Below are positions 3,208-32,000 of a stretch of 32,000 nt of DNA, one piece after another (position 1 is the stretch's first letter; each line of letters begins with the position of its first letter). The stretch spans positions 630,001 through 662,000 of the forward strand of contig NZ_AP013028.1 in assembly GCF_000829315.1 (NCBI RefSeq), given 5' to 3'. A program made the translations under genes and the position numbers. A model generated the notes under the pieces. The model had not been told where the DNA came from. It did no database searches and saw nothing but the letters and a program-made list of their open reading frames with translations. The DNA is from Wolbachia endosymbiont of Cimex lectularius (GTDB lineage Bacteria; Pseudomonadota; Alphaproteobacteria; Rickettsiales; Anaplasmataceae).

Positions 3208-3464
3208 TATACATGCGGAAAGGTTAATATTGAGTTAACTAAAACGTTTCTGATGTTAGGTTTTACTAAAAATTATACTACTTTAGATATAATTATTCCC
3301 ATTTTTAGAAATGCTCTCTGTGTTCAAGCAGCTAAGGCTAGAAAATCTAGTTGATACATAGTTACTTATTTGCTATGAATTTAACTGCGCTAAATTTTAG
3401 CAAATTAAAATTTATAAAAAATAGTTTTTTATAAACCTATGATTTTAAATTTAAGGTGAGGTTG

Positions 3465-4673
3465 ATGCTACAAAGAAACTTTTTAATATGGTTGCTAGCA
3501 TCGCTGTTCTATGCGTACCAATACATATTACGCGTAATCCCGAACATAATCGCACCTGAATTAATAACAAAGTTTAACATAAGTGTTACAGATGTTGGTC
3601 AATTCGGTGGGCTGTATTATGTAGGCTATACGCTTGCTCACATACCTGTTGGTCTTTTTCTTGACAGATCTGGCCCAAAACTTGTTTTGCCTATATGCAC
3701 TATTTTGATATTTGCTGGGACACTACCGCTTATATGCTTCGATGAGTGGTATTACTCAATACTTGGTAGAATAATCATCGGAATTGGATCGTCTGCTTCA
3801 GCAATTGGGATCTTTAAAGTTGCAAGCATGTATTTTTCACAAGAAAAATCAGCAAGAATGGCCAGTTTGTCTATAATAATAGGACTACTAGGAGCTATTT
3901 ATGGTGGATTACCCTTGGACTTTTTACTCGATAAATTTGGTTGGGATTATGTTATTTATACTTTCTCGGCGTTTGGTTGTTTGCTTGCTTTGCTGTTATT
4001 CTTTGTAACGCCAAGCAGTAATGCACAAGAGAGTGCAAGTGACAATGTACTTCAAGATTTAAAAACTGTGCTCTTCAACAAACATATCATTCTGATCAGT
4101 TTTTTTGGTGGCTTAATGGTTGGTCCATTAGAAGGTTTTGCTGATGGCTGGGCAAAAGCATTCTTGTGTGAGGTGTATCAAATGACTGGAGATCTAGCGT
4201 CTTCGCTTTCTTCTCTCATGTTTATAGGTATGGGAGCTGGAGCATTCTTTTTGGCTTACCTGCTGGAAAAGTGTCCAAATAGGCATTACGAAGTAATTAT
4301 TGCGTGTTCTTTTGCAATGATCGCTAGCTTCCTTTTGCTTTTTACACGAGCTGGTGGCCTATATGTCGTGCTACCTGCACTTCTTGTTATTGGCTTTGCA
4401 TCTGGATATCAGGTAATTACCATTTACAAAGCAATAAGTTATGTGAACAATAACTTGGTAGGCTTGGCTACGGCCGTATCAAACATGATAGTTATGGTTT
4501 TTGGCTATTTTTTTCACGTTGGAATCGCAAAAATAGTAGATTTGTATTGGGATGGAATGATAATACAAGGAAATCCTGTGTATGGTGCTGGATTGCTGGT
4601 AAAAGCAATATCGATTATTCCTATATGTCTACTCCTGGCTGCTTTTGGTTTTGTGTGGTTGAAACGATCTTAA
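3465..4673 (+). CDS. MFS transporter
   Basis: About 12 hydrophobic segments. The MFS loop 2-3 motif is GLFLDRSGPK. I prefer the ATG at 3465, preceded by GGTGAGG, over the in-frame GTG at 3456 used by the ORF track. Confidence 0.8.
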   Translation: MLQRNFLIWLLASLFYAYQYILRVIPNIIAPELITKFNISVTDVGQFGGLYYVGYTLAHIPVGLFLDRSGPKLVLPICTILIFAGTLPLICFDEWYYSILGRIIIGIGSSASAIGIFKVASMYFSQEKSARMASLSIIIGLLGAIYGGLPLDFLLDKFGWDYVIYTFSAFGCLLALLLFFVTPSSNAQESASDNVLQDLKTVLFNKHIILISFFGGLMVGPLEGFADGWAKAFLCEVYQMTGDLASSLSSLMFIGMGAGAFFLAYLLEKCPNRHYEVIIACSFAMIASFLLLFTRAGGLYVVLPALLVIGFASGYQVITIYKAISYVNNNLVGLATAVSNMIVMVFGYFFHVGIAKIVDLYWDGMIIQGNPVYGAGLLVKAISIIPICLLLAAFGFVWLKRS

Positions 4674-6007: not shown

Positions 6008-6055
6008 CTCTAGTAATTTATATGGTGTCATCCAAGCAGTTCATAGAAACAGGGT

Positions 6056-6326
6056 CAAAAAACTACTTGACAAATTCCTCCAAACCCTTTATAATGAGAC
6101 TGAAGCTATTCATTTAACTTCGCAATCTGCAGATTAAAATGACAAAGGAAACTTTGTATTTGGCGTCTCATGTCTTTTTAAAACTTCTGGTTTTTACCTA
6201 TACAAGCTGAAACGCGCTTATAAGTCGTTTAAGACAGTATAGAACGTCAAATAGAACAAGGGAGAATTTGAATACTAGCTGCTCTGGGTTTCTTTTGCCT
6301 TTTTTTTCTGCTTAGTAAATTTTTTT
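6056..6326 (+). ncRNA. candidate promoter-sRNA-terminator module, copy A
   Basis: -35 TTGACA (6067-6072), 17-nt spacer, -10 TATAAT (6090-6095). There is a 5' hairpin GAAG..CTTC. The 3' half (6180-6300) is nearly identical to 21686-21806. It ends GGGTTTCTTTTGCC plus T8 and CTGCTTAGTAAATTT. Confidence 0.45.
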
Positions 6327-6339
6327 AATATTTATTATT

Positions 6340-6660
6340 AAAGTAGTATCCTGGATGCCAGTGTCGAGCACATAGCTGTACGAACATTGCAATTAGCAGG
6401 TAATTTGCGTAACAGATGGTGTCATGCCAGTGCTTGACACTGGGATCCAGCATTTCCATAATCATCAAAACGTCGTATTTTAACATAAAACAGCTACTTT
6501 TATACTCGCCAACTTAATAAAACTCCTGGATGCCAGTGTCAAGCACTGGCATGACACCCTAGTGGTAGGCTCAAATTACAATGTTCGTACAGTTGTGTGT
6601 CGAGCACTGGAATGACAAAAAAAGCTACTGGGATGACAAGAAGGGGTGCCGAAATGACGC
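6340..6660. repeat. cluster of nested palindromic repeats (GGATGCCAGTGTCAAGCACTGGCATGACACC-type units)
   Basis: The unit occurs at 6349-6371, in reverse orientation at 6419-6451, and at 6527-6558 (hairpin GCCAGTG/CACTGGC). A second inverted pair is GTACGAACATTGCAATT (6378-6394) and AATTACAATGTTCGTAC (6573-6590). Degenerate CTGGNATGAC units follow up to ~6660. Confidence 0.85.
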
Positions 6661-7305: not shown

Positions 7306-7318
7306 ATTAGCCTCCTAA

Positions 7319-8178
7319 GAACCTGTTTAAAATCTTGGAAATGTGAGGTAAAGTAAGCATAGATTAATAATGAGGTGTCTATGCAGAAAAGTTATCCAAG
7401 TAATATAAGTCAAGAGCAGTTTGAAAAAATCAGGCCAATTTTGGAGAGTAGCAAGCAGAAAACAAAACCAAGAAAACTTGATTTGTATGACGTATTTTGT
7501 GGGGTGTTGTACGTCTTAAAAAGTGGTTGTCAGTGGAGGATGTTACCAAAGGGTTTTCCAAGATGGGAAAGCGTATATTACTATTTTCGAGTGTGGAGTA
7601 AAAAGAATGGAGAAGAGCCAAGCTTGTTGGAATTAGTCTTAAAAAAAATTAGTTGGAGAGGTCCGTATCAGCAATGGTCGGAAAGAGAAAACTAGCTTTT
7701 GTATAATTGATTCTCAAAGCGTTAAAAACGCAGATACTGCTGAAAAAAAAGGCTATGATGCAGGTAAAAAGATTTCAGGGATAAAGCGCCATATTGCAGT
7801 TGATACACAAGGTTTGCCACATGCAATTTATGTAACAACGGCAGAAGCAACTGACCGTAGCAGTGCTGTGAAAATGGTCGAAAATGCTAAAGCAAACCTC
7901 TCTGAAGTTAAAAACATACTGGTTGATGCTGGCTACACAGGAGAAAATTTTGCAACACAAATAAAAGCTATCATTGGTGCGACTGTTGAAGTAATAAAGC
8001 GAAGTGAGTTACACACTTTCGTTGTATTGCCAAAAAGATGGGTTGTTGAACGCTCTTTTGCCTGGTTAGAAAAGTGCAGGCGATTGTGGAAAAATTGCGA
8101 GCGGAAGCTCAACACTAGCTTACAGATGATAGTCCTCTCCTTCATTTCTCTCCTGTTACGAAGATTTTAAACAGGTTC
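7319..8178 (+). mobile_element. IS5-family insertion sequence (IS427/IS1031-like), 860 bp
   Basis: Perfect 18-bp terminal inverted repeats: GAACCTGTTTAAAATCTT (7319-7336) and its complement (8161-8178). Flanking TAA direct repeats lie at 7316-7318 and 8179-8181. Confidence 0.9.
7375..8170 (+). CDS. IS5-family DDE transposase encoded in two frames joined at an A8 tract
   Basis: orfA 7375-7695 carries the N-terminal block DVFCGVLYVLKSGCQWRMLP. The second frame is open from 7643 and reads KKLVGEVRISNGRKEKTSFCIIDSQSVKN...VDAGYTG...ERSFAWL (DDE residues). The frames overlap at A8 (7641-7648), and one fewer A would give a single 264-aa ORF. Confidence 0.85.
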
Positions 8179-8344
8179 TAAAAAAACTATAATAAAAAAA
8201 TGCAATTCTTATTACATTACTATACTATTATAACTTATTTTAAAATAATTGCAATAGTTGTATTAATATTTTAACCAAATTATATGTTGCATAAAAGCAC
8301 TTATTGCTCTAACATCGCAGTAGGTTAGAAATGAAGAGGTTTTT

Positions 8345-10226: not shown

Positions 10227-10269
10227 AGCATGGGCTCCTCGCATAACAAACCAGTTTTTGGTATGTCGT

Positions 10270-10556
10270 GAAACGAAAAAATTACTTGACAAATTCCGCC
10301 GACACCCTTATCATAGAAATAAGGGTATTTCTGACTCAAAACTTGTTTTTGATCTGCAGCCTCAATGATAAAATTCAGTAAAAAACTCAGGGTATTTTTT
10401 GGCGGATTGTATCAAATTATAGCGGCTGCATGTCTTTTTCATTTTTTCTACATTCAGCCAAATCGTGCTTAAACTAAGCGTCAGCAAATTATTATAGAGT
10501 CAAAACTCGCCACTCGGGGTTCTTTTTGTTTTTTTTTATTTGGTAAATTTCTTAAA
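10270..10556 (+). ncRNA. candidate promoter-sRNA-terminator module, copy D
   Basis: -35 TTGACA (10286-10291), 17-nt spacer, -10 TATCAT (10309-10314). It has the hairpin GCTTA-AAC-TAAGC. It ends CGGGGTTCTTTTTG plus a T-run and TTTGGTAAATTTCTTAA. As in copy A, it is followed by ATCCTGGATCCCAGTG (10576-10591). Confidence 0.45.
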
Positions 10557-10631
10557 TACTTATTACTAAAATAATATCCTGGATCCCAGTGCCAGCTACT
10601 GCTTATGAATTTCTTTATCAAACAAAAAGAT

Positions 10632-15559: not shown

Positions 15560-15665
15560 ATTCTTTGAAAAACAATTAATACACAAATAGTTAAGATTTC
15601 AATAAAATTGACTAAGTAATTGAAATCATGTATAATATACTAGTCCATAAGTTAGTTGGGTTTAT

Positions 15666-16574
15666 ATGACTAGTATCGTTAAGAAATCTTCTGATGTTGA
15701 TGAAAAAAAAAGGCGTGAACAAGAGTTATTAGCACTAAAAGAGGAAGCAGAAAAAAAACTCAAACAAGAACTATTAACACTGAAAAAAAGAGAGCTATAT
15801 AGACAATACGTGTCATTGGCAACAATGGCCCCATTTGCATTGCTGATGGCTGTTAAGCTGGAAAAAATATGTAGCGATCAGGTATTGCTTGGTGTTATAA
15901 GTGGTGCACTAAGCCACGCTATATTACCTTTTGCAGCTTTATCTCTTATTTGTACGCTATATTTAGTTTACAATAATAGGAAGATAGCTAAAAAGGAACA
16001 GGAATTAAAGGATCTTGAAAATGGCAAAGTGGTAGAAGAAGAGAAGAGAGATGTTCCTTATACCGTTGATGATTACCTTAACTACGCTGATGCTGCTTTA
16101 ACTACATTAGTTATTGTAGCTAGTATAGTTAGCGAAGCATTGGATCAAGGAATAATAGAAGATGTAGCCTTTTCAATTTCTAGCCTATTTTACTTTGTGG
16201 CAAGCGCTAATTTCTTCTATTGTGAGTACAAGAAGAGCAAAAAACATGAGGTAGACAAAGGGCAAGAGAATTCTAACCTTGATGAAAAATCTGAAAAAAA
16301 GGCTAACAATATGTCTGCTGCTAGTTTAATGTTTGCTGGTTTTTCTATAATGTTAATAAGGAGAATAATGTTAATAGCATTAGCATCATTCTTACATCCT
16401 GCTGTTGGACCCGCTTTGGGTTTAGTATGCATCACTCTTTTGATGGCAGGAAGTGGACTGATTGTACATCTTTATAAGAGAGAGTTAAAGAATGTAGAGA
16501 TCAGTGGAAAAGGTATGACAGGTGCGAGCAATGTAGAAGGAATAGATGGCCCAAACCAAGGACTGTTTGCATAA
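15666..16574 (+). CDS. orphan polytopic membrane protein (302 aa) with three charged-linker/TM-hairpin units
   Basis: An N-terminal Lys/Glu coiled-coil-like stretch is followed by three repeats of a charged K/E-rich linker plus two hydrophobic helices. I recognise no family. Confidence 0.55.
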   Translation: MTSIVKKSSDVDEKKRREQELLALKEEAEKKLKQELLTLKKRELYRQYVSLATMAPFALLMAVKLEKICSDQVLLGVISGALSHAILPFAALSLICTLYLVYNNRKIAKKEQELKDLENGKVVEEEKRDVPYTVDDYLNYADAALTTLVIVASIVSEALDQGIIEDVAFSISSLFYFVASANFFYCEYKKSKKHEVDKGQENSNLDEKSEKKANNMSAASLMFAGFSIMLIRRIMLIALASFLHPAVGPALGLVCITLLMAGSGLIVHLYKRELKNVEISGKGMTGASNVEGIDGPNQGLFA

Positions 16575-16576
16575 CT

Positions 16577-16625
16577 TAAACTAAGCAGAAAAACAGGCAA
16601 AGAAGCCCCGTGGTGGCTAGTTATT
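16577..16625 (-). repeat. solo 3' end of the module family (terminator part only)
   Basis: The - strand reads CTAGCCACCACGGGGCTTCTTTGCCTGTTTTTCTGCTTAGTTTAAG. This matches the conserved 3' motif and the CTGCTTAG tail. It begins ~30 nt after the Rpn stop codon. Confidence 0.6.
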
Positions 16626-16656
16626 GATATTTACCTCAAAATACATCAGTGTCTAT

Positions 16657-17633
16657 TCAGCCAAGTGGTTTGAAATTAACTTGTACCTCTTCTTTAAGTT
16701 GTGCAACTTCAGCTCTAGGAAGACCAGTAGTTTGGGCTATGATATCAATAGAAACCCCTACTTTAAGTAGGTTTTTAGCCACAGCAATTTTAGCCTGTTT
16801 TTCGCCCTCCTCTCTCCCTTTCGCTCTACCTTTTTGATGACCGATGAGGATGCCTTCTTCCCTGCCGATTTGGATGCCTTCTTGTCTGCCTTTTTCAGTA
16901 GCATCATCAAGTTTTTGAGCGAGGACAGCTTTCTCATCACGAATACGCTTGATCTCTTGCTCGTAAGCTATAAATTCTTTTTCTGACCAGTTGAATCTAT
17001 TTAGCTCCTCATATGCTTTTTTGATTATTACGTCACTTCCTATTATTCTTTCCAATTCCCTTTCACTAGTTTCTTCCGCATACTTGAAGAAGTAGACCCA
17101 TTTTTCAACTATACTCTCTAATTGATCTTCCTTCGTTTTCGGAAATTTTGGCAGTTCAATAAATGTAAAATAAAAATCTTTTAGATCATGTTCATTGGTA
17201 TCCTCATCCCGAATAGTGTGCTTTGATTTATACTCAGACTTGTCAGGGAATAAGATACAATCGGCAATGGCGATAAAGATAATTTCTTTAAGGTCTTCAT
17301 ATTGATCGCCTTTATTAGCCTGTCTTGAATACGCTTTAGCTGCATAGTATTGAGCACGTTTTTTAAAGCCTTTAGTTTTAGCGACTGCATTTCGACTATC
17401 ACTTGCACCCCATTTTCATCTCTGCAGAGAACATCAACAATGCTTTGCTTTTTGGAGGCAATTTCAGCATCTTGAATAGTGCTGAGAAACTCTATTTCTT
17501 TTATTTCATCCTTGCCAGTAAAGTCCAAGATATCATTGAGAAAATGAATGAGGATGTCCTTATTTTTTTCAGTGCCAAAGATACGACGAAACGCTACATC
17601 ATTTTTAGGGTCGAGAAATTTTGAAAAAGCCAC
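16657..17633 (-). pseudogene. Rpn-family recombination-promoting nuclease / PD-(D/E)XK putative transposase, single 1-nt frameshift
   Basis: The N-terminus AFSKFLDPKNDVAFRRIFGTEKNKDILIHFLNDIL...VDVLCRDENGVQVIVEMQ is typical of the YhgA/Rpn family. At ~17385 (ATGCAG|TCGCT) one base is missing. The -1 frame then continues VAKTKGFKKRAQYYAAKAYSRQ...FIELPKF... to the stop at 16657. A candidate promoter is TTGAAT (17688-17683), 17 nt, TATAAT (17665-17660). Confidence 0.8.
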
Positions 17634-17749
17634 GACTACAATGCTTAAAAATATTAATAATTATACACAATTCTGTAGAAATATTCAATCTTTTTGTTTC
17701 GGATGTATCGATCTACGAACCCAAGCCTCATCTTGCATTGCAATTATAT

Positions 17750-18064
17750 TAAAAAATTTACTAAGCAGAAAAAAAGACAAAAGAAATCCCGTGGTAGAAG
17801 TTGCTCACTTTCTAATCCTGCAAATTGGCGTACTATACTGTCTTGAACGACTTATAAGCGCGTTTCAGCTTGTATAGGGAAAAACCTAGAATTCTAGGTA
17901 AAATTAACAAAGACATGAGGTGCACATAGTGCAAAAAATTAAACATAAGACGCCAACCGTGATACTTTCGTCGTTTAACCTGCACAGATTGAAGCTAAAT
18001 GAATAGCTTCATTACTATGATAGGGGGATTGACGAAGGTTGTCAAGTAGTTTTTTTTGTTTCAT
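17750..18064 (-). ncRNA. candidate promoter-sRNA-terminator module, copy C
   Basis: On the - strand: -35 TTGACA (18045-18040), 17-nt spacer, -10 TATCAT (18022-18017). It has a 5' hairpin GAAGCT-N8-AGCTTC and an internal hairpin TGCAC-TAT-GTGCA. It ends GGGATTTCTTTTGTC plus T7 and CTGCTTAGTAAATTT. Confidence 0.45.
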
Positions 18065-20643: not shown

Positions 20644-21096
20644 CTACTGGTCACGCAGCTGGTCTATGGATATAATACTGCCATTTGGCAGGTTTTCAGT
20701 GTGTCTTTCACTGTTATATTCTTTGTCAGAATCGATACTGATCTTGTCAAATATTAAAACATCCCCTGAAACTTTATCATGGAATTCGCTAATAGCAAAA
20801 AATGGCACGGTAATTTGCTCTTGTTTTCCGCGGAAACTCAAACTTACGCTAAATTTATCCTCAAAAATTTTTAAATCATAGAATTGATGTTGTAATATAA
20901 TAAGTACTTGAGTAGGGTATGACTTTCTTAGGTAATCTGGCACGATAACACCGTTAAAATAAGTGAAAAATAATATTTCTAAATGAGGAGTAAAATCATT
21001 GCCTGATATGATATCTAAAGCCTTTTTAATGACTTGAAACTTGGCGAAATTAAGCGATCTCTTATAATCTATTTTGTCCATATAACTTTTGCACAT
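20644..21096 (-). CDS. sspB: ClpXP adaptor SspB (alphaproteobacterial type)
   Basis: 150 aa. The block YPTQVLIILQHQFYDLKIFEDKFSVSLSFRGKQEQITVPFFAISEFHD matches the conserved SspB-alpha core (YP..MTIVLQHQ.WDL.V.ED.F.V.LSF....L.IPF.AI..F.D). Confidence 0.8.
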   Translation of the reverse strand: MCKSYMDKIDYKRSLNFAKFQVIKKALDIISGNDFTPHLEILFFTYFNGVIVPDYLRKSYPTQVLIILQHQFYDLKIFEDKFSVSLSFRGKQEQITVPFFAISEFHDKVSGDVLIFDKISIDSDKEYNSERHTENLPNGSIISIDQLRDQ

Positions 21097-21103
21097 GTAA
21101 ATT

Positions 21104-21400
21104 CTGGGGGAACTTCTGTTACCCGGCGTTCCCTGAACCGTGCTTTAGTAATAAATTGGCTGTGCTAAATTAAGCAGCAACACGGAATTCATTACCGTTA
21201 GCAGCAAAATTATCGTTTGCATTTAAATTACGAACTCTTAACGGTGGTGTCTAACCGAGCAAAGTTACCATCTTTACTATGCATGTCGATCCTTATTCGC
21301 CCCCATATAAATTAAAAACATGGTGGAGGCGCCGAGTACTGCCCTCGGGTCCAATACACCTATTACAAGGTAATTTTATTGCCATAGTGTATAAAACGCA
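21104..21400 (-). ncRNA. ssrA: two-piece (circularly permuted) tmRNA precursor
   Basis: On the - strand the acceptor piece ends ...CCGAGGGCAGTACTCGGCGCCTCCACCA (CCA at 21323-21321). A 16-nt intervening segment spans 21320-21305. The coding piece starts GGGGGCGAATAAGGATCGAC at 21304, and GGGGGCG pairs with CGCCTCC including the G3:U identity pair. The tag frame GCA AAC GAT AAT TTT GCT GCT AAC GGT AAT GAA TTC CGT GTT GCT GCT TAA (21220-21170) encodes ANDNFAANGNEFRVAA. The outer ends are approximate. Confidence 0.9.
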
Positions 21401-21407
21401 CATAGCT

Positions 21408-21436
21408 ATTATATAATAATATCAAGTAAATGTCAA
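21408..21436 (-). promoter_or_regulatory. consensus sigma-70 promoter of ssrA
   Basis: On the - strand: TTGACA (21436-21431), 17-nt spacer, TATAAT (21413-21408). Confidence 0.7.
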
Positions 21437-21521
21437 GATATTTAACTTTAAGTTAATCGGTAGCCAATACCAATTCCCACTACACAAAAAGCGGACAGAC
21501 AACAGTAGAGAAAATCTATCC

Positions 21522-21836
21522 AACAGAAACAAAAAAACTACTTGACAAATTCCTTCAGTTCCCTTATCATGTTATTGAAGCTATTTATTTATCTTCGCAA
21601 TCTGTGCAGGTTAATGACAAAAAACTTAGGGTATTTGGTGCCTCATTGTTTAAATTTTTGCACTATGTGCACCTCATGTCTTCGTAAAACTTCTGGTTTT
21701 TACCTATACAAGCTGAAACGCGCTTATAAGTCGTTTAAGACAGTATAGAACGTCAAATAGACAAGGGAGAATTTGAATACTAGCTGCTCTAGGTTTCTTT
21801 TGCCTTTTCTCCTGCTTAGTAAATTTCTTAATATTC
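21522..21836 (+). ncRNA. candidate promoter-sRNA-terminator module, copy B
   Basis: A-tract CAGAAACAAAAAAACTAC, -35 TTGACA (21542-21547), 17-nt spacer, -10 TATCAT (21565-21570), hairpin TGCAC-TAT-GTGCA. It ends AGGTTTCTTTTGCCTTTTCTCCTGCTTAGTAAATTTCTTAA. Confidence 0.45.
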
Positions 21837-21917
21837 ATAGCTAAGGCAATTTAATAGCACATAAAAAATGCCAAAAATAATCGCCTTTTTCTGCTCATGT
21901 GCAAGAAGTCTATTACA

Positions 21918-22958
21918 TTAGTAGCTCTTCACTAAGTCTACTAATGCGGCAATATTTTCAACTGGAGTGTCAGGAAGCACTCCATGCCCGAGATTAAATA
22001 TGAAAGGTAAATCTCTAAAGCAATCTATTATACGCTTCGCTTCTTCAATTGCTTTAGCTTTGTTATATGCCAAGAGACTAGGATTGAGGTTTCCTTGCAG
22101 AGGGACTTTCAGGTTTTCTTTTGCCCATTCTATTGGAATGTCATAATCTATACTCACTGCTGACACACCCGTTTGGTCACAGTAATCCTTATAGAAACTT
22201 CCAGCAGATCTTGGAAAACCTATTATTGGAAAATCTGGGAACCTATCCCTTATCGCTAAGGTAATCTTCTCTGTCGGCTCAATAACATATTTCTTAAATA
22301 GCCCTTTCGACAACGCTCCGGCATTACTGTCAAACAACTGTATAACATCTGCTCCAAACTCTATTTGCTTAATCAGATAGGTGATTGTTGCCTCCGTTAT
22401 CCGCTTGATTATTTTTTCCAAGCTTGAGGGACAGAAATTCAGCACTTTAGAAAAGGTTTTGCTGCTTCCACCCTCTATGATGTACGAAGCAACTGTCCAC
22501 GGACCTCCAGCAAACCCTATGAGAGACTTTTCTTCCGGCAAACAACTCCTTACTCCCTTTATAGCGTTTAGAATTGGCAGGGTCTTAGCTTCAATTTCTT
22601 GTGGACTTCCCAGCTCTTTAAAATCTTCCACGGGCCTTATCATCGGACCTACGCCGAGCACGAAGTTTACATCACAACCCAAGGCATCAGCCACTATTAA
22701 AATGTCAGAGAAGATTATCGCTGCATCCATGTTAAACCTTGCAACTGGTTGCAGTGTCAGCTCTACCACCAAATCTGTGCTATAACACATCTCTATAAAA
22801 TTACTCACGTTTTTTACCGCTTCGCGGTACTCAGGGAGAGATCTACCCGCCTGGCGCATTAGCCAAATTGGTGTCTCCTTACCCTGCCTGCCCTCACTTA
22901 TGGTTCTTGCTATTATTGTTTTACTGTTTTTCAGTTTAGTTAATCTGTCTTCTTTCAT
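21918..22958 (-). CDS. hemE: uroporphyrinogen decarboxylase
   Basis: 346 aa with the URO-D signature [10 protein letters not shown] and a full-length match to the family pattern. Confidence 0.95.
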
Positions 22959-23340
22959 ATAGTAAAGTATAATAGTAGTAGTAGTTTTATCAACGGTCTG
23001 TTATTAACTTAAAATTCTATGAAGGTTCTTAATTGCCCGACTTGTGGATAAGTATGTTAATAACTTTTATATATTATTGATTTTCTGTAGTAACTTATGT
23101 GTATAAGTAGAATGTTCAGATTGTTAGTAATCTTCCCTTATGGAAAAGGTTTTCCCATTGTACGCTGTTATATAATTATGTGTACACCAGTGAAAAAGTT
23201 GTTGATCAATTGTTAGTATCCGGTATCAACAGATAATCCACAAATTAATTTGACATTATTCACATGCTTATTAAACATTTAACAACAGTTTTCTTGGTAA
23301 ACCTGATCCAAAAATATTTTTACCATTAGTAGGAAGCAAG
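22959..23340. other. putative chromosomal replication origin (oriC)
   Basis: Divergent hemE/tlyC intergenic region, which as I recall is the published Wolbachia ori location. There is a perfect DnaA box TTATCCACA (complement of 23043-23051) and a one-mismatch box TAATCCACA (23234-23242). Near-CtrA boxes are TTAA-N7-TTAT (23245-23259) and TTAT-N7-TTAA (23068-area not matched; 23268-23282). The AT-rich tract TTTTATATATTATTGATTTT is also present. Gene orientation switches from mostly - to mostly + here. Confidence 0.55.
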
Positions 23341-30302: not shown

Positions 30303-30591
30303 AACAGAAACAAAAAAACTACTTGACAACCTTCGCCAGTCCCCTTACAATAGAATTGTGGGTGTTTTAAGCCTAAAATTTATCTTTAATCTTTGTATTA
30401 AGTGACAAAAGCACAGTATAAAACAAGGCGTGTTATGTTTAATTTTTGCAGCATGGACATTGCATGTCTTTATAATTTTTTGTCTACATTAGCTGGACCT
30501 CGCTTATTAAGCGGTGTAAGAGAGAACCGGACGCCAAGTTTTTGAGAGAACAGTAAACAACTCACATTGCGGGGTTTCTTTTGTCTTTTTT
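30303..30591 (+). ncRNA. candidate promoter-sRNA-terminator module, copy E
   Basis: A-tract CAGAAACAAAAAAACTAC, -35 TTGACA (30323-30328), 17-nt spacer, -10 TACAAT (30346-30351). Hairpins are TGCAG-N8-TTGCA (with G:U) and CGCTT-ATT-AAGCG. It ends GGGGTTTCTTTTGTC plus T6. Confidence 0.45.
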
Positions 30592-30630
30592 CAAAATTCG
30601 TTAAAAATTTAACTAATCTCATTTTTTTTA

Positions 30631-30780
30631 CAAAAAAATTGCTTGACAAGTTTTGACGTTTCCCTTATCATGAAATTATGGGTATTTACAACCCCAAGGT
30701 CAGCTACTTGTCAAGCGTATAGAACATTAACGCCAAGTTATTAAAATAGATATTGACCGGGGCTTCTTTTGCTTTTTTTT
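30631..30780 (+). ncRNA. candidate promoter-sRNA-terminator module, copy F (short form)
   Basis: -35 TTGACA (30643-30648), 17-nt spacer, -10 TATCAT (30666-30671). The closing helix is CCCCAAGGTCA...TGACCGGGG, and the inner helix is ACTTG(TCAA)GCG...CGCCAAGT. It ends GGGGCTTCTTTTGC plus T8. Confidence 0.45.
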
Positions 30781-30882
30781 CGTGTAGTTTAGGTTATGCA
30801 ACGTGTCTACTCTCTAGTTTCACTATGAAACAATTGAATTGACTTTATATGAACAATCAGTATAACTTAGTTAACTTGTATC

Positions 30883-31326: not shown

Positions 31327-31559
31327 CTAGTTTGTGATCTGCCATTATCACTATTGTCAGAGTTGCCAGCTTGTGACCTGCGCAACTGTCTACGCGATGT
31401 TACCCGTACTTCCCTTAACCTGCTCTTAGATCTAACTGATCACTATTGTCAGCTCGTGATCTGCTAATATCACTATCGTCAGAGTCGTTAGAACGTGAAA
31501 ATCTCGGTAACCTATTAGACGATATTGACTGCACTTCACTTAACTCGCTGCTTAGATCT
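31327..31559. repeat. degenerate ~108-bp tandem duplication at the 3' end of the LRR gene
   Basis: Unit 31451-31559 and unit 31327-31432 align over GTGATCTGC.A.TATCACTAT.GTCAGAGT ... CTTAAC..GCT.CTTAGATCT. A third partial copy, ATCACTATTGTCAG, lies at ~31439-31452. Confidence 0.75.
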
Positions 31560-32000
31560 GACTGATCGCTATCGCTACCAGAGTTTGACAGGCTCGATGA
31601 GCTCTCTTCCATTTCTCTATTACGCCTTTTTTCTAATGAGATAAGGATATATACTTCTACACCTTTGTCATCAATTCTGTTCCATCTTAAATCAAGTGAA
31701 GTAAGCCGTGAAAGATTACCATTAGCTAAAGCCTCTGCACCTTTTTTACTAATATTATTACCCATAAGATCAAGTTCAGTGAGACGTATAAGATTACCGT
31801 TAGCTAAGGCTTCTACACCTTTATTACCAATACGGTTGTTATTTAAATTAAGTGAAGTAAGACGTGCAAGATTGCTATCAGCTAAAGCCTCTGCACCCTT
31901 TTCACCAATATCATTACTCGATAAATTAAGCTCAGTAAGCCGTGAAAGATTACCATTAGCTAGAGCCTCTGCACCTTTATCACCAATTTCGTTGAAACGT
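31415..32000 (-). CDS. leucine-rich-repeat protein (26-residue RI-like LRRs) with acidic Ser/Asp-rich tail; 5' end beyond window
   Basis: The frame is open to the window edge. There are four exact 78-nt periods (GCACC landmarks at 31741, 31819, 31897, 31975). They encode NL.RLT.L.L..N.IG.KGAEALA repeats, followed by EESSSSLSNSGSDSDQSDLSSELSE...SNDSDDSDISRSRADNSDQ. Confidence 0.75.
   Translation of the reverse strand, partial: RFNEIGDKGAEALANGNLSRLTELNLSSNDIGEKGAEALADSNLARLTSLNLNNNRIGNKGVEALANGNLIRLTELDLMGNNISKKGAEALANGNLSRLTSLDLRWNRIDDKGVEVYILISLEKRRNREMEESSSSLSNSGSDSDQSDLSSELSEVQSISSNRLPRFSRSNDSDDSDISRSRADNSDQLDLRAG

Follow-up and report, generated by a model that had tools for sequence, protein, structure and literature searches.

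A Wolbachia-specific family of intergenic repeats that are non-coding transcription units

Why should one stretch of a Wolbachia genome carry the same promoter, attached to the same repeated sequence, again and again between its genes? The stretch that we studied, which we call the window, is 32,000 nucleotides (nt) long and comes from the Wolbachia endosymbiont of Cimex lectularius (NZ_AP013028.1, positions 630,001 to 662,000). It contains eight full copies of a repeat of about 330 bp, which we call modules A to F, E', and F', along with one promoter-less 3' unit and one remnant. We conclude that the modules belong to a real and sizeable family of intergenic repeats that is specific to Wolbachia, that the members of this family are non-coding transcription units, and that the family is new as a described family.

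The eight full copies and a 3' fragment near 16577 had been proposed by a sequence-only reading of the window, and both proposals hold up. A promoter pattern, AAAAAYTRCTTGACAA-N16-TAYMAT, has eight matches in the window at up to one mismatch, as compared to 0.00 occurrences expected (100 shuffles), and a profile that we made from members of the family matches nine places: the eight full copies and the 3' unit at 16576-16639 on the minus strand. All eight copies align along their whole length. Each has the same parts in the same order: an A-tract, the hexamer TTGACA, a spacer of exactly 17 nt, a -10 box (TATCAT in five copies, TACAAT in two, and TATAAT in one), a mosaic body of 105-245 nt, and a U-rich end. 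The shared 3' end is ...GGG.TTTCTTTTG(Y)C and a T-run, and then a CTGCTTAGTAAATTT tail. So the anatomy was described correctly, from the A-tract and the invariant -35 box with its fixed spacing to the three -10 variants, the shared body blocks, and the common end. A further fragment had been placed near 392-420; a match of 13 nt does exist at about 395-415, which is too short to judge. The module promoters are the top-scoring sites in a promoter scan of the window, alongside the promoter of the transfer-messenger RNA (tmRNA). It had been suggested that the tmRNA has the only other consensus promoter in the window, but there are two more at up to one mismatch, at 6434(+) and 15608(+).

How widespread is the family? 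We scanned species-representative genomes with the promoter pattern, and most of the listed matches were strong promoters of a generic kind, from Clostridia and further unrelated bacteria. The same scan gave at least 28 loci from Wolbachia or “Rickettsiales” with full-length homologues, which are 65-92% identical to the window copies, and a scan of metagenomes with a conserved body block gave 49 further stretches. In all, we collected at least 48 distinct full-length copies. In 44 of 54 full-length matches, the end of the -10 box and the end of the T-run are 230-250 nt apart. The family is present in supergroups A, D, and F, and it makes up about 8% of the Wolbachia sequence that we fetched, a share that is biased upward because most of these loci were fetched through the repeat. 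Contigs often end inside family copies. Supergroup A (wAu and wMel-like strains), wBm, the window, and C61_2, which is a metagenome-assembled genome of a sister strain, all have a copy after glyA; a profile search of the glyA loci of wDimm, wCfeT, and Mesenet found no family copy. Also, wBm has a tandem pair downstream of tlyC (positions 3221-3674 of our fetched locus L179) that is homologous to modules E and F, so this arrangement predates the split of supergroups D and F.

The family does not appear to be a known element under another name, in line with the sequence-only reading, which could not assign it to a known class. No match was obtained in Rfam 15 at gathering thresholds, and searches by E-value with E/F and C gave chance-level hits (E ~0.4). 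Module C had no blastn match among 50,697 phage records or 72,556 plasmid records, and the ends of the IS4/IS5-type insertion sequence in the window are unrelated to the module ends. In the published literature, we found nothing relevant on the family's sequence blocks, nor on “mobile promoters” together with Wolbachia.

Nevertheless, members of the family have been seen before, as highly transcribed intergenic regions (IGRs) of wMel, so the claim that the modules fit no known class is too strong in this respect. No one has described them as a family. The supplement of Woolfit et al. 2015 prints clones of such regions that were obtained by rapid amplification of 5' cDNA ends (5'RACE) (PMC4349823). 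Clone IGR-1047 spans a whole member of the family, running from GAAGCTATTG... to ...GGGGATTCTTTGTCTTTTTTTCTGCTTAGTAAATTTCTTAA and past, and clone IGR-1021 is a C-type member. The primers for IGR-1021 and IGR-1049 from that study match modules B and C exactly, while the primers for IGR-446, -392, -921, and -1035 resemble family blocks by eye, which is our sole basis for assigning these regions. Furthermore, three start sites that were identified by Cappable-seq in wMelPop-CLA (131390, 713865, and 1067756; PMC12558409, Table S1) have a family promoter upstream and a family body downstream, and the regions around them match the family profile with nhmmer E values of 1e-23 to 1e-40. If we align the two RACE and three Cappable-seq 5' ends with modules A and C, then all of the 5' ends lie in a single column, at a G that is the 7th nucleotide past the -10 box. 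The start had been predicted at about 7 nt past the -10 box, and for these wMel paralogues of the window modules, this held exactly. We infer from the shared sequence that the window modules start transcription at the same G.

These transcripts seem to be abundant, and some respond to temperature. Two of the three family start sites went up by 2.7- to 5.4-fold at 4 h past a shift to 34 or 21 degrees C (PMC12558409). In RNA-seq of wMel (S1 Data), the normalised expression column gives 844 for IG-392 and 392 for IG-446, which were placed in the family from primer sequences only, as compared to 9-34 for the flanking genes. Neither of the two studies (PMC4349823, PMC12558409) describes the transcripts as one family. 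Woolfit et al. found many candidates too repetitive for primer design (PMC4349823), and regions of the family's type were dropped as possible 5' untranslated regions or as too repetitive. The Cappable-seq study discarded reads that map to multiple locations, so the family is under-counted there, and two members are annotated as “hypothetical protein” (PMC12558409). The RNAs that were named by Woolfit et al. are something else: ncrwmel02 has no nhmmer match to the family, and ncrwmel01 is unrelated to it and contains, by eye, a palindrome of the WsnRNA46 type.

Are the promoters maintained by selection? We compared 108 distinct promoter regions that were found by the profile, not by the promoter pattern. 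The fraction of sequences with the majority base is 0.98 in the -35 box, 0.90 in the -10 box, 0.71 in the spacer, and 0.75-0.79 in the flanks. TTGACA is intact in 96 of the 108 regions, while about 13% would be expected if it drifted as the spacer does. Because conservation reaches 98% in the -35 box, as compared to 71% in the spacer, we argue that transcription is under selection. The sequence-only reading had contrasted the hexamers with a freely drifting spacer, which is not quite right: the spacer is homologous between copies, with a majority base of 71% per position. The broader claim, that each module is a transcription unit in itself, driven by a genuine sigma-70 promoter that is under selection, is borne out by the hexamers, by their spacing, and by the start sites in wMel.

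The exceptions are concentrated in two genomes, C61_2 and wBm. C61_2 and the window share 92-93% identity along 20 kb. The promoters of the three C61_2 orthologues that we examined have changed: the orthologue of A has TTAACA and CACCAT, the orthologue of D has ATGGCA and TACCGT, and the orthologue of F' has TTAACA with its -10 box unchanged (TATCAT). The T-runs of all three are eroded. Changes affect 9 of 36 hexamer positions, versus 102 of 727 positions elsewhere in these modules (Fisher p = 0.06). In wBm, the hexamers have decayed in both the post-glyA copy and the E-F tandem. The transcription of each copy is kept in some lineages and given up in others.

What might the transcripts do? We favor the explanation, with about an even chance of its being right, that the modules are a selected family of sibling RNAs, made by autonomous sigma-70 units, that act through conserved unpaired blocks. 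The A-tract, which resembles a proximal UP element, and TTGACA-17-TATCAT would initiate transcription at the G that is 7 nt past the -10 box. The product would be a non-coding RNA, AU-rich and weakly structured, with a length of about 235-245 nt, or of about 105 nt in the case of F and F'. It would open with a short 5' stem-loop, continue with the mostly unpaired conserved blocks GGCGU, CAUGUCUU, and AAGCUGAAACGCGCUUAUAAGUCGUUUAAGACAG, and end in a U-rich tract behind a weak hairpin whose 5' arm is A/G-rich and whose 3' arm is U-rich. This end would be a leaky terminator, often backed by a second, promoter-less 3' unit. Because the copies lie past co-oriented stop codons and face convergent genes, the 3' unit probably also ends the upstream mRNA. 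The family would evolve by recombination and gene conversion between its copies. Our best guess is that an abundant pool of sibling small RNAs works by base-pairing or protein binding at the unpaired blocks rather than through a fold. A more ambitious version is that the sibling RNAs form a network: they would act via their unpaired blocks on repeat copies that sit, sense or antisense, in the 3' ends of many unrelated mRNAs, and so couple the stability of these mRNAs across the genome, or else they would be exported to the host. We consider either idea, the network or the export, to be a long shot.

Several observations weigh against a family of selected RNAs. First, all of the copies that we examined in C61_2 and wBm have decayed promoters, so the family is dispensable. 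Second, between close strains, the modules diverge faster than the surrounding DNA does (14% versus about 7%). Third, our counts are biased, as the loci were fetched for the repeat, and many of the copies, orthologues from related strains, are not independent. Fourth, we found no complementary target of at least 13 nt in about 550 kb of Wolbachia sequence, nor did conserved k-mers of the family have any recurrent match of at least 13 nt outside of the repeats in that sequence, sense or antisense. Fifth, transcripts of wMel run past the T-run, as seen in the RACE product of IGR-1047 and by reverse-transcription PCR of IGR-1021 (PMC4349823). Finally, neither thermodynamics nor covariation supports a fold (RNAalifold, shuffle z-scores).

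This last point also bears on the earlier description of the modules as structured RNAs, which we do not uphold. Across 44 copies, RNAalifold gives no consensus structure (-1.48 kcal/mol, with 3 invariant pairs), and the minimum free energy, relative to shuffled sequences, has a mean z-score of -0.54 over the whole RNA and of +0.57 over its 3' 65 nt. Folded singly, module E gives a z-score of +0.65 and module F gives one of -0.69. What we see instead are short local hairpins: the 5' stem-loop GAAGCTA/TAGCTTC, with changes from C:G to G:C or G:U; AATCT/AGATT; GGCGT/ATGTC, which encloses TGCAC/GTGCA; and CGCTT/AAGCG. In these hairpins, which we hand-picked from the sequences, 87.5% of positions are paired, versus 24-46% in slid controls, and covariation is scarce, with double changes in only 14 cells in 6 pairs. 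A compensatory change between the hairpins of different copies had been suggested, but E and E' differ by a one-sided change between G:U and G:C, and the 3' arms of the E type and of the B/C type fall in different alignment columns, which weakens the claim further. The proposed GCTTA/TAAGC hairpin has its central pair broken in 36 of the 44 copies. What stands out most is conservation of the sequence itself: largely unpaired blocks such as AAGCTGAAACGCGCTTATAAGTCGTTTAAGACAG are conserved at 90% or more in the 44 copies. We also considered guide RNAs, omega-RNAs, retrons, and riboswitches and dropped them because there is neither a conserved scaffold nor a partner gene beside the copies, so the earlier idea of guide-type RNAs has no support. 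Resemblances to CtrA and integration host factor (IHF) sites, seen by eye, are not conserved in the E and D types.

The positions of the modules suggest other explanations, so we describe each module in its context. Module A (6051-6347, plus strand) starts 34 nt past the stop codon of glyA. It has its -35 box at 6067-6072, a TATAAT -10 box at 6090-6095, a predicted transcription start at 6102, and the end of its T-run at 6307, and it is without the TGCAC hairpin block. Module D (10267-10575, plus) starts 34 nt past the stop codon of an M16 peptidase gene and points at an ABC-transporter gene that converges on it; its -35 box is at 10286-10291, its TATCAT at 10309-10314, its predicted start at 10321, and its T-run end at 10537. 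On the minus strand, module C (17745-18064) starts 25 nt past the stop codon of ftsK, with the -35 box at 18045-18040, TATCAT at 18022-18017, a predicted start at 18010, and a T-run end at 17769. Module B (21523-21851, plus) reads away from the divergent tmRNA promoter and toward the convergent hemE gene (-35 box at 21542-21547, TATCAT at 21565-21570, predicted start at 21577, and T-run end at 21808). Just past it, at 21860-21917 (plus), a stretch that abuts the stop codon of hemE on the opposite strand contains AAAAAATGCCAAAAATAATCGCCTTTTTCTGCTCATGTGCAAGAAGTCTA and looks, by eye and without a score, like the remnant of a second promoter-less 3' unit.

The other four modules form two tandem pairs, E'F' (420-919, minus) and EF (30303-30788, plus), which are inverted duplicates, 84-98% identical and 29.4 kb apart. 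Module E (30303-30611, plus) starts 30 nt past the stop codon of purQ and has its -35 box at 30323-30328, TACAAT at 30346-30351, a predicted start at 30358, and a T-run end at 30591. Module F (30631-30788, plus) is a short form, with just a promoter and a 3' unit (-35 box at 30643-30648, TATCAT at 30666-30671, predicted start at about 30678, T-run end at 30780), and a tRNA-Glu gene lies about 100 nt downstream of it. Module E' (611-919, minus), the inverted duplicate of E, has its -35 box at 899-894, TACAAT at 876-871, a predicted start at 864, and a T-run end at 630; it is missing in C61_2. Module F' (420-594, minus) is 98% identical to F, with its -35 box at 581-576, TATCAT at 558-553, a predicted start at about 546, and a T-run end at about 445. 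It is upstream of a co-oriented open reading frame (ORF) that we took, by eye, to be the start of a murA-like gene, and the syntenic gene in C61_2 has an EPSP_synthase domain. The solitary promoter-less 3' unit (...CGGGGCTTCTTTGCCTGTTTTTCTGCTTAGTTTAAGTTATGCAA; 16576-16639, minus), which was found by the profile, lies between convergent ORFs, 18 nt past the stop codon of the co-oriented ORF 16657-17055.

The same arrangement recurs across the family. An upstream ORF could be recognised for 47 copies; 30 of these copies run in its direction, and 25 of the 30 start within 80 nt of its stop codon. Of 31 copies with a downstream ORF, 21 face it convergently. The typical start of a copy is 15-50 nt past the stop codon of an upstream gene that reads in the same direction, and the gene ahead is convergent. 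Promoter-less 3' units are common too: 52 of 68 are in tandem behind a full module, and the few solitary ones with known context, including the one at 16576-16639, lie 18-36 nt past a co-oriented stop codon. This could be explained if each copy were a cis-acting insulator, with 3' units that stop the upstream gene, a promoter that blocks antisense read-through, and an RNA that is a by-product. It would make sense of the doubled 3' units, and also of the fact that the promoter and the U-rich end are among the best-conserved parts while the bodies are mosaic. But several body blocks that are at least 90% conserved over 44 copies would be left unexplained, and 17 of the 47 copies are not co-oriented with the upstream ORF. 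Also, a terminator scan of the window called none at the module T-runs, no canonical GC-rich hairpin lies ahead of them, and read-through is documented in wMel. In all, we think it rather improbable that the modules are insulators.

What kind of end is it, then? The modules had been said to end in terminators. The U-rich T-run is present, as claimed, but a canonical hairpin is not, and transcripts of wMel continue past the T-run. In some subtypes, a long but weak hairpin is predicted to end at the U-tract, with an A/G-rich 5' arm that pairs with a U-rich 3' arm. The U-rich arm has subtype-specific variants, UUUCUUUUG and UUUUAUUG, and these are opposite differing partner arms in the predicted pairing. 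It is plausible that the module end is a leaky, non-canonical terminator.

A leaky end raises another possibility: the module could be a mobile promoter or leader, and the gene downstream of it could be expressed through a terminator that is leaky or regulated, as in an attenuator. The transcript of IGR-1021 in wMel does extend into the downstream coding sequence (PMC4349823), and in the window, F points to tRNA-Glu, F' points to the murA-like frame, and C points to a fragment of an Rpn-family gene, each in the same orientation. On the other hand, A, B, and D, like the 21 of 31 copies overall, aim at the 3' end of a convergent ORF, and their promoters are intact. There is also no conserved structure for ligand binding or antitermination. 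We consider this explanation to be very unlikely.

Could the modules encode small proteins? There is a recurrent reading frame that ends in ...LYKLKRAYKSFKTV before its stop codon. This frame is open for 24-57 codons in most copies, and in 21 of 43 copies there is an ORF of at least 25 codons that starts with ATG. In the C type, the ORF has, as read by eye, a hydrophobic N-terminal part and a basic tail. These features would fit a small-protein gene that resembles a type I toxin and is translated from the module RNA, and type I systems typically take the form of intergenic repeats with a strong promoter. In particular, the QUAD/Sib-Ibs and LDR repeats of E. coli and aapA/IsoA of H. pylori are repeated intergenic modules with a strong promoter, an RNA of 100-400 nt, and a terminator. 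But those systems encode a conserved small toxin and an antisense RNA, whereas the Wolbachia modules have no ORF that is shared across subtypes, and we did not find an antisense promoter: on the opposite strand of modules B and C, no promoter-like site scores 9/12 or better, although weak promoters could escape such a search. Furthermore, the start codon is absent in 22 of 43 copies, the N-terminal part of the ORF is read in three frames among the subtypes, in the E and D types, the homologous bases fall in another frame, and no Shine-Dalgarno sequence was seen by eye. This agrees with the earlier claim that no ORF is conserved between copies. The module RNA is unlikely to be coding, and the toxin-like explanation in particular is highly improbable.

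Alternatively, the family may be a selfish or neutral dispersed repeat, akin to MITEs (miniature inverted-repeat transposable elements) or REP elements, that accumulates in harmless 3' intergenic regions, with a promoter activity that is incidental and an RNA that has no function. Besides the preference of the copies for convergent and 3' intergenic regions, the bodies are mosaic and rich in insertions and deletions, presence or absence varies between close strains, contigs break at copies, and the family has decayed in wBm and C61_2. A subclass of copies has inverted end blocks, TAGACTTCTTGCATA...TATGCAAGAAGTCTA, that abut stop codons. The wMel genome paper (Wu et al. 2004, PMC368164) reports unnamed multi-copy repeat families that are “flanked by inverted repeats,” such as “repeat family 8,” of which there are 45 copies. 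These are likewise unlike known elements, and we liken them to the modules by description only; the paper's account of these repeats, unlike ours, says nothing of promoters or transcripts. In the modules, however, the inverted blocks are the exception: of 38 copies, 10 have the left block, 9 have the right block, and just 3 have both, so we rejected a MITE-type transposon. We saw no target-site duplication by eye and no matching transposase, and E' versus C61_2 is the only case of presence and absence that we have. A DNA transposon does not need a promoter, and yet conservation here is 98% in the -35 box versus 71% in the spacer. And the post-glyA copy has been held in place across supergroups A, D, and F. 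We think that a selfish or neutral repeat is unlikely, though it is the most probable of the rival explanations.

The Correia elements of Neisseria and the ERIC, BOX, and REP/BIME repeats are natural points of comparison, as they are short, abundant, genus-specific intergenic repeats that can carry promoters, are co-transcribed with their neighbours, and drive rearrangements. They are defined by terminal inverted repeats or by a stable stem-loop, and the Wolbachia family has neither consistently. Also, unlike the Correia-type repeats, the Wolbachia module has a complete inward promoter, ends in a U-rich tract of its own, and so acts like a small gene.

Whatever the modules do, there are signs that they recombine. 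The post-glyA copy of wAu is closer to module C (81%) than to module A (70%), which implies exchange between copies. Where C61_2 lacks E', the junction is within the -35 region, and the absence of E' is explained by recombination between two promoters. Also, in supergroups A, C, and D, hemE is followed directly by an aspartate aminotransferase gene, at a distance of ~60-70 bp. These genes lie about 20 kb apart in the window and in opposite orientations (aspartate aminotransferase gene at 1037-2230, hemE at 21918-22958), and modules B and E' are at the two breakpoints of this split. The mosaic bodies, the tandem units, the deletion of E' in the sister strain, and the copies at rearrangement breakpoints (which would also suit a selfish repeat) together lead us to propose recombination between copies.

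The window strain itself appears, from its glyA product, to be closest to supergroup-F-like Wolbachia. This protein is 95-97% identical to proteins from the Wolbachia that live in Mansonella ozzardi and M. perstans and from related metagenome bins, versus 89% for supergroup A strains and 83-86% for filarial strains.

The window has other features that adjoin the modules or could be confused with them. Besides the tRNA-Glu gene, it has a two-piece alpha-proteobacterial tmRNA at 21079-21440(-), whose promoter is a perfect TTGACA-17-TATAAT (21436-21408, minus); an sspB homologue is directly downstream (20644-21096, minus). Just past module A, there is a palindromic region with two nested inverted repeats (6355-6613), which includes an Rfam match to Wolbachia small RNA 46 (WsnRNA46, also written WsnRNA-46, RF02625) at 6402-6580(-). 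The near-consensus promoter at 6434(+), TTGACA-17-CATAAT, lies within this palindrome. In the Cappable-seq tables for wMel and wAlbB, CCAGTGCTTGACACTGG palindromes provide the -35 box of several antisense and primary start sites. WsnRNA-46 and the Wolbachia palindromic repeats are like the modules in that they are specific to Wolbachia, repeated, and transcribed, and they often adjoin modules, but the sequence of WsnRNA-46 is unrelated and strongly palindromic, and it is a separate element with its own TTGACA box.

Further along, an insertion of about 860 bp (7318-8179), bounded by 45-bp inverted repeats, encodes a split IS4/IS5-type transposase (DUF4096 and a DDE_Tnp_1 domain). It is missing in C61_2, where the alignment skips from window position 7322 to 8183. 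The other near-consensus promoter, TTGACT-17-TATAAT at 15608-15636(+), is upstream of ORF 15666-16574, which encodes 302 amino acids and has no confident family match. Directly downstream of module C and co-oriented with it is a truncated Rpn/PD-(D/E)XK “transposase-like” gene (17181-17633; 150 amino acids), and the loci from wCfeT and Mesenet have related PDDEXK_2 genes at their ends. The region 22959-23340, between hemE and a divergent tlyC-like CBS/CorC gene, is reportedly the origin of replication that was proposed for Wolbachia (Ioannidis et al. 2007). At 31654-31965, within the stretch 31415-31965, three direct-repeat copies with a start-to-start spacing of 78 nt overlap a minus-strand ORF with a leucine-rich-repeat match; this region is probably part of a repeat-protein gene that runs off the window.

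Wolbachia is used in the control of arboviruses and is a drug target in filariasis, and its gene regulation is hardly understood. If dozens of strong, conserved promoters of this family are active, then they would be among the largest transcriptional outputs of the cell after the stable RNAs. The family is systematically hidden by RNA-seq and Cappable-seq analyses that filter out repeats, and annotation pipelines mislabel its members as “hypothetical protein.” Defining the family recasts earlier candidates for small RNAs, and it accounts for breaks in assemblies and for sites of inversions. It also provides a comparison for the role of the RNA, between lineages with live promoters (the wMel group, termite-associated strains, and the window strain) and lineages with dead ones (wBm and C61_2). 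And if the network of sibling RNAs were real, then the stability of mRNAs would be coupled in a bacterium that has few protein regulators.

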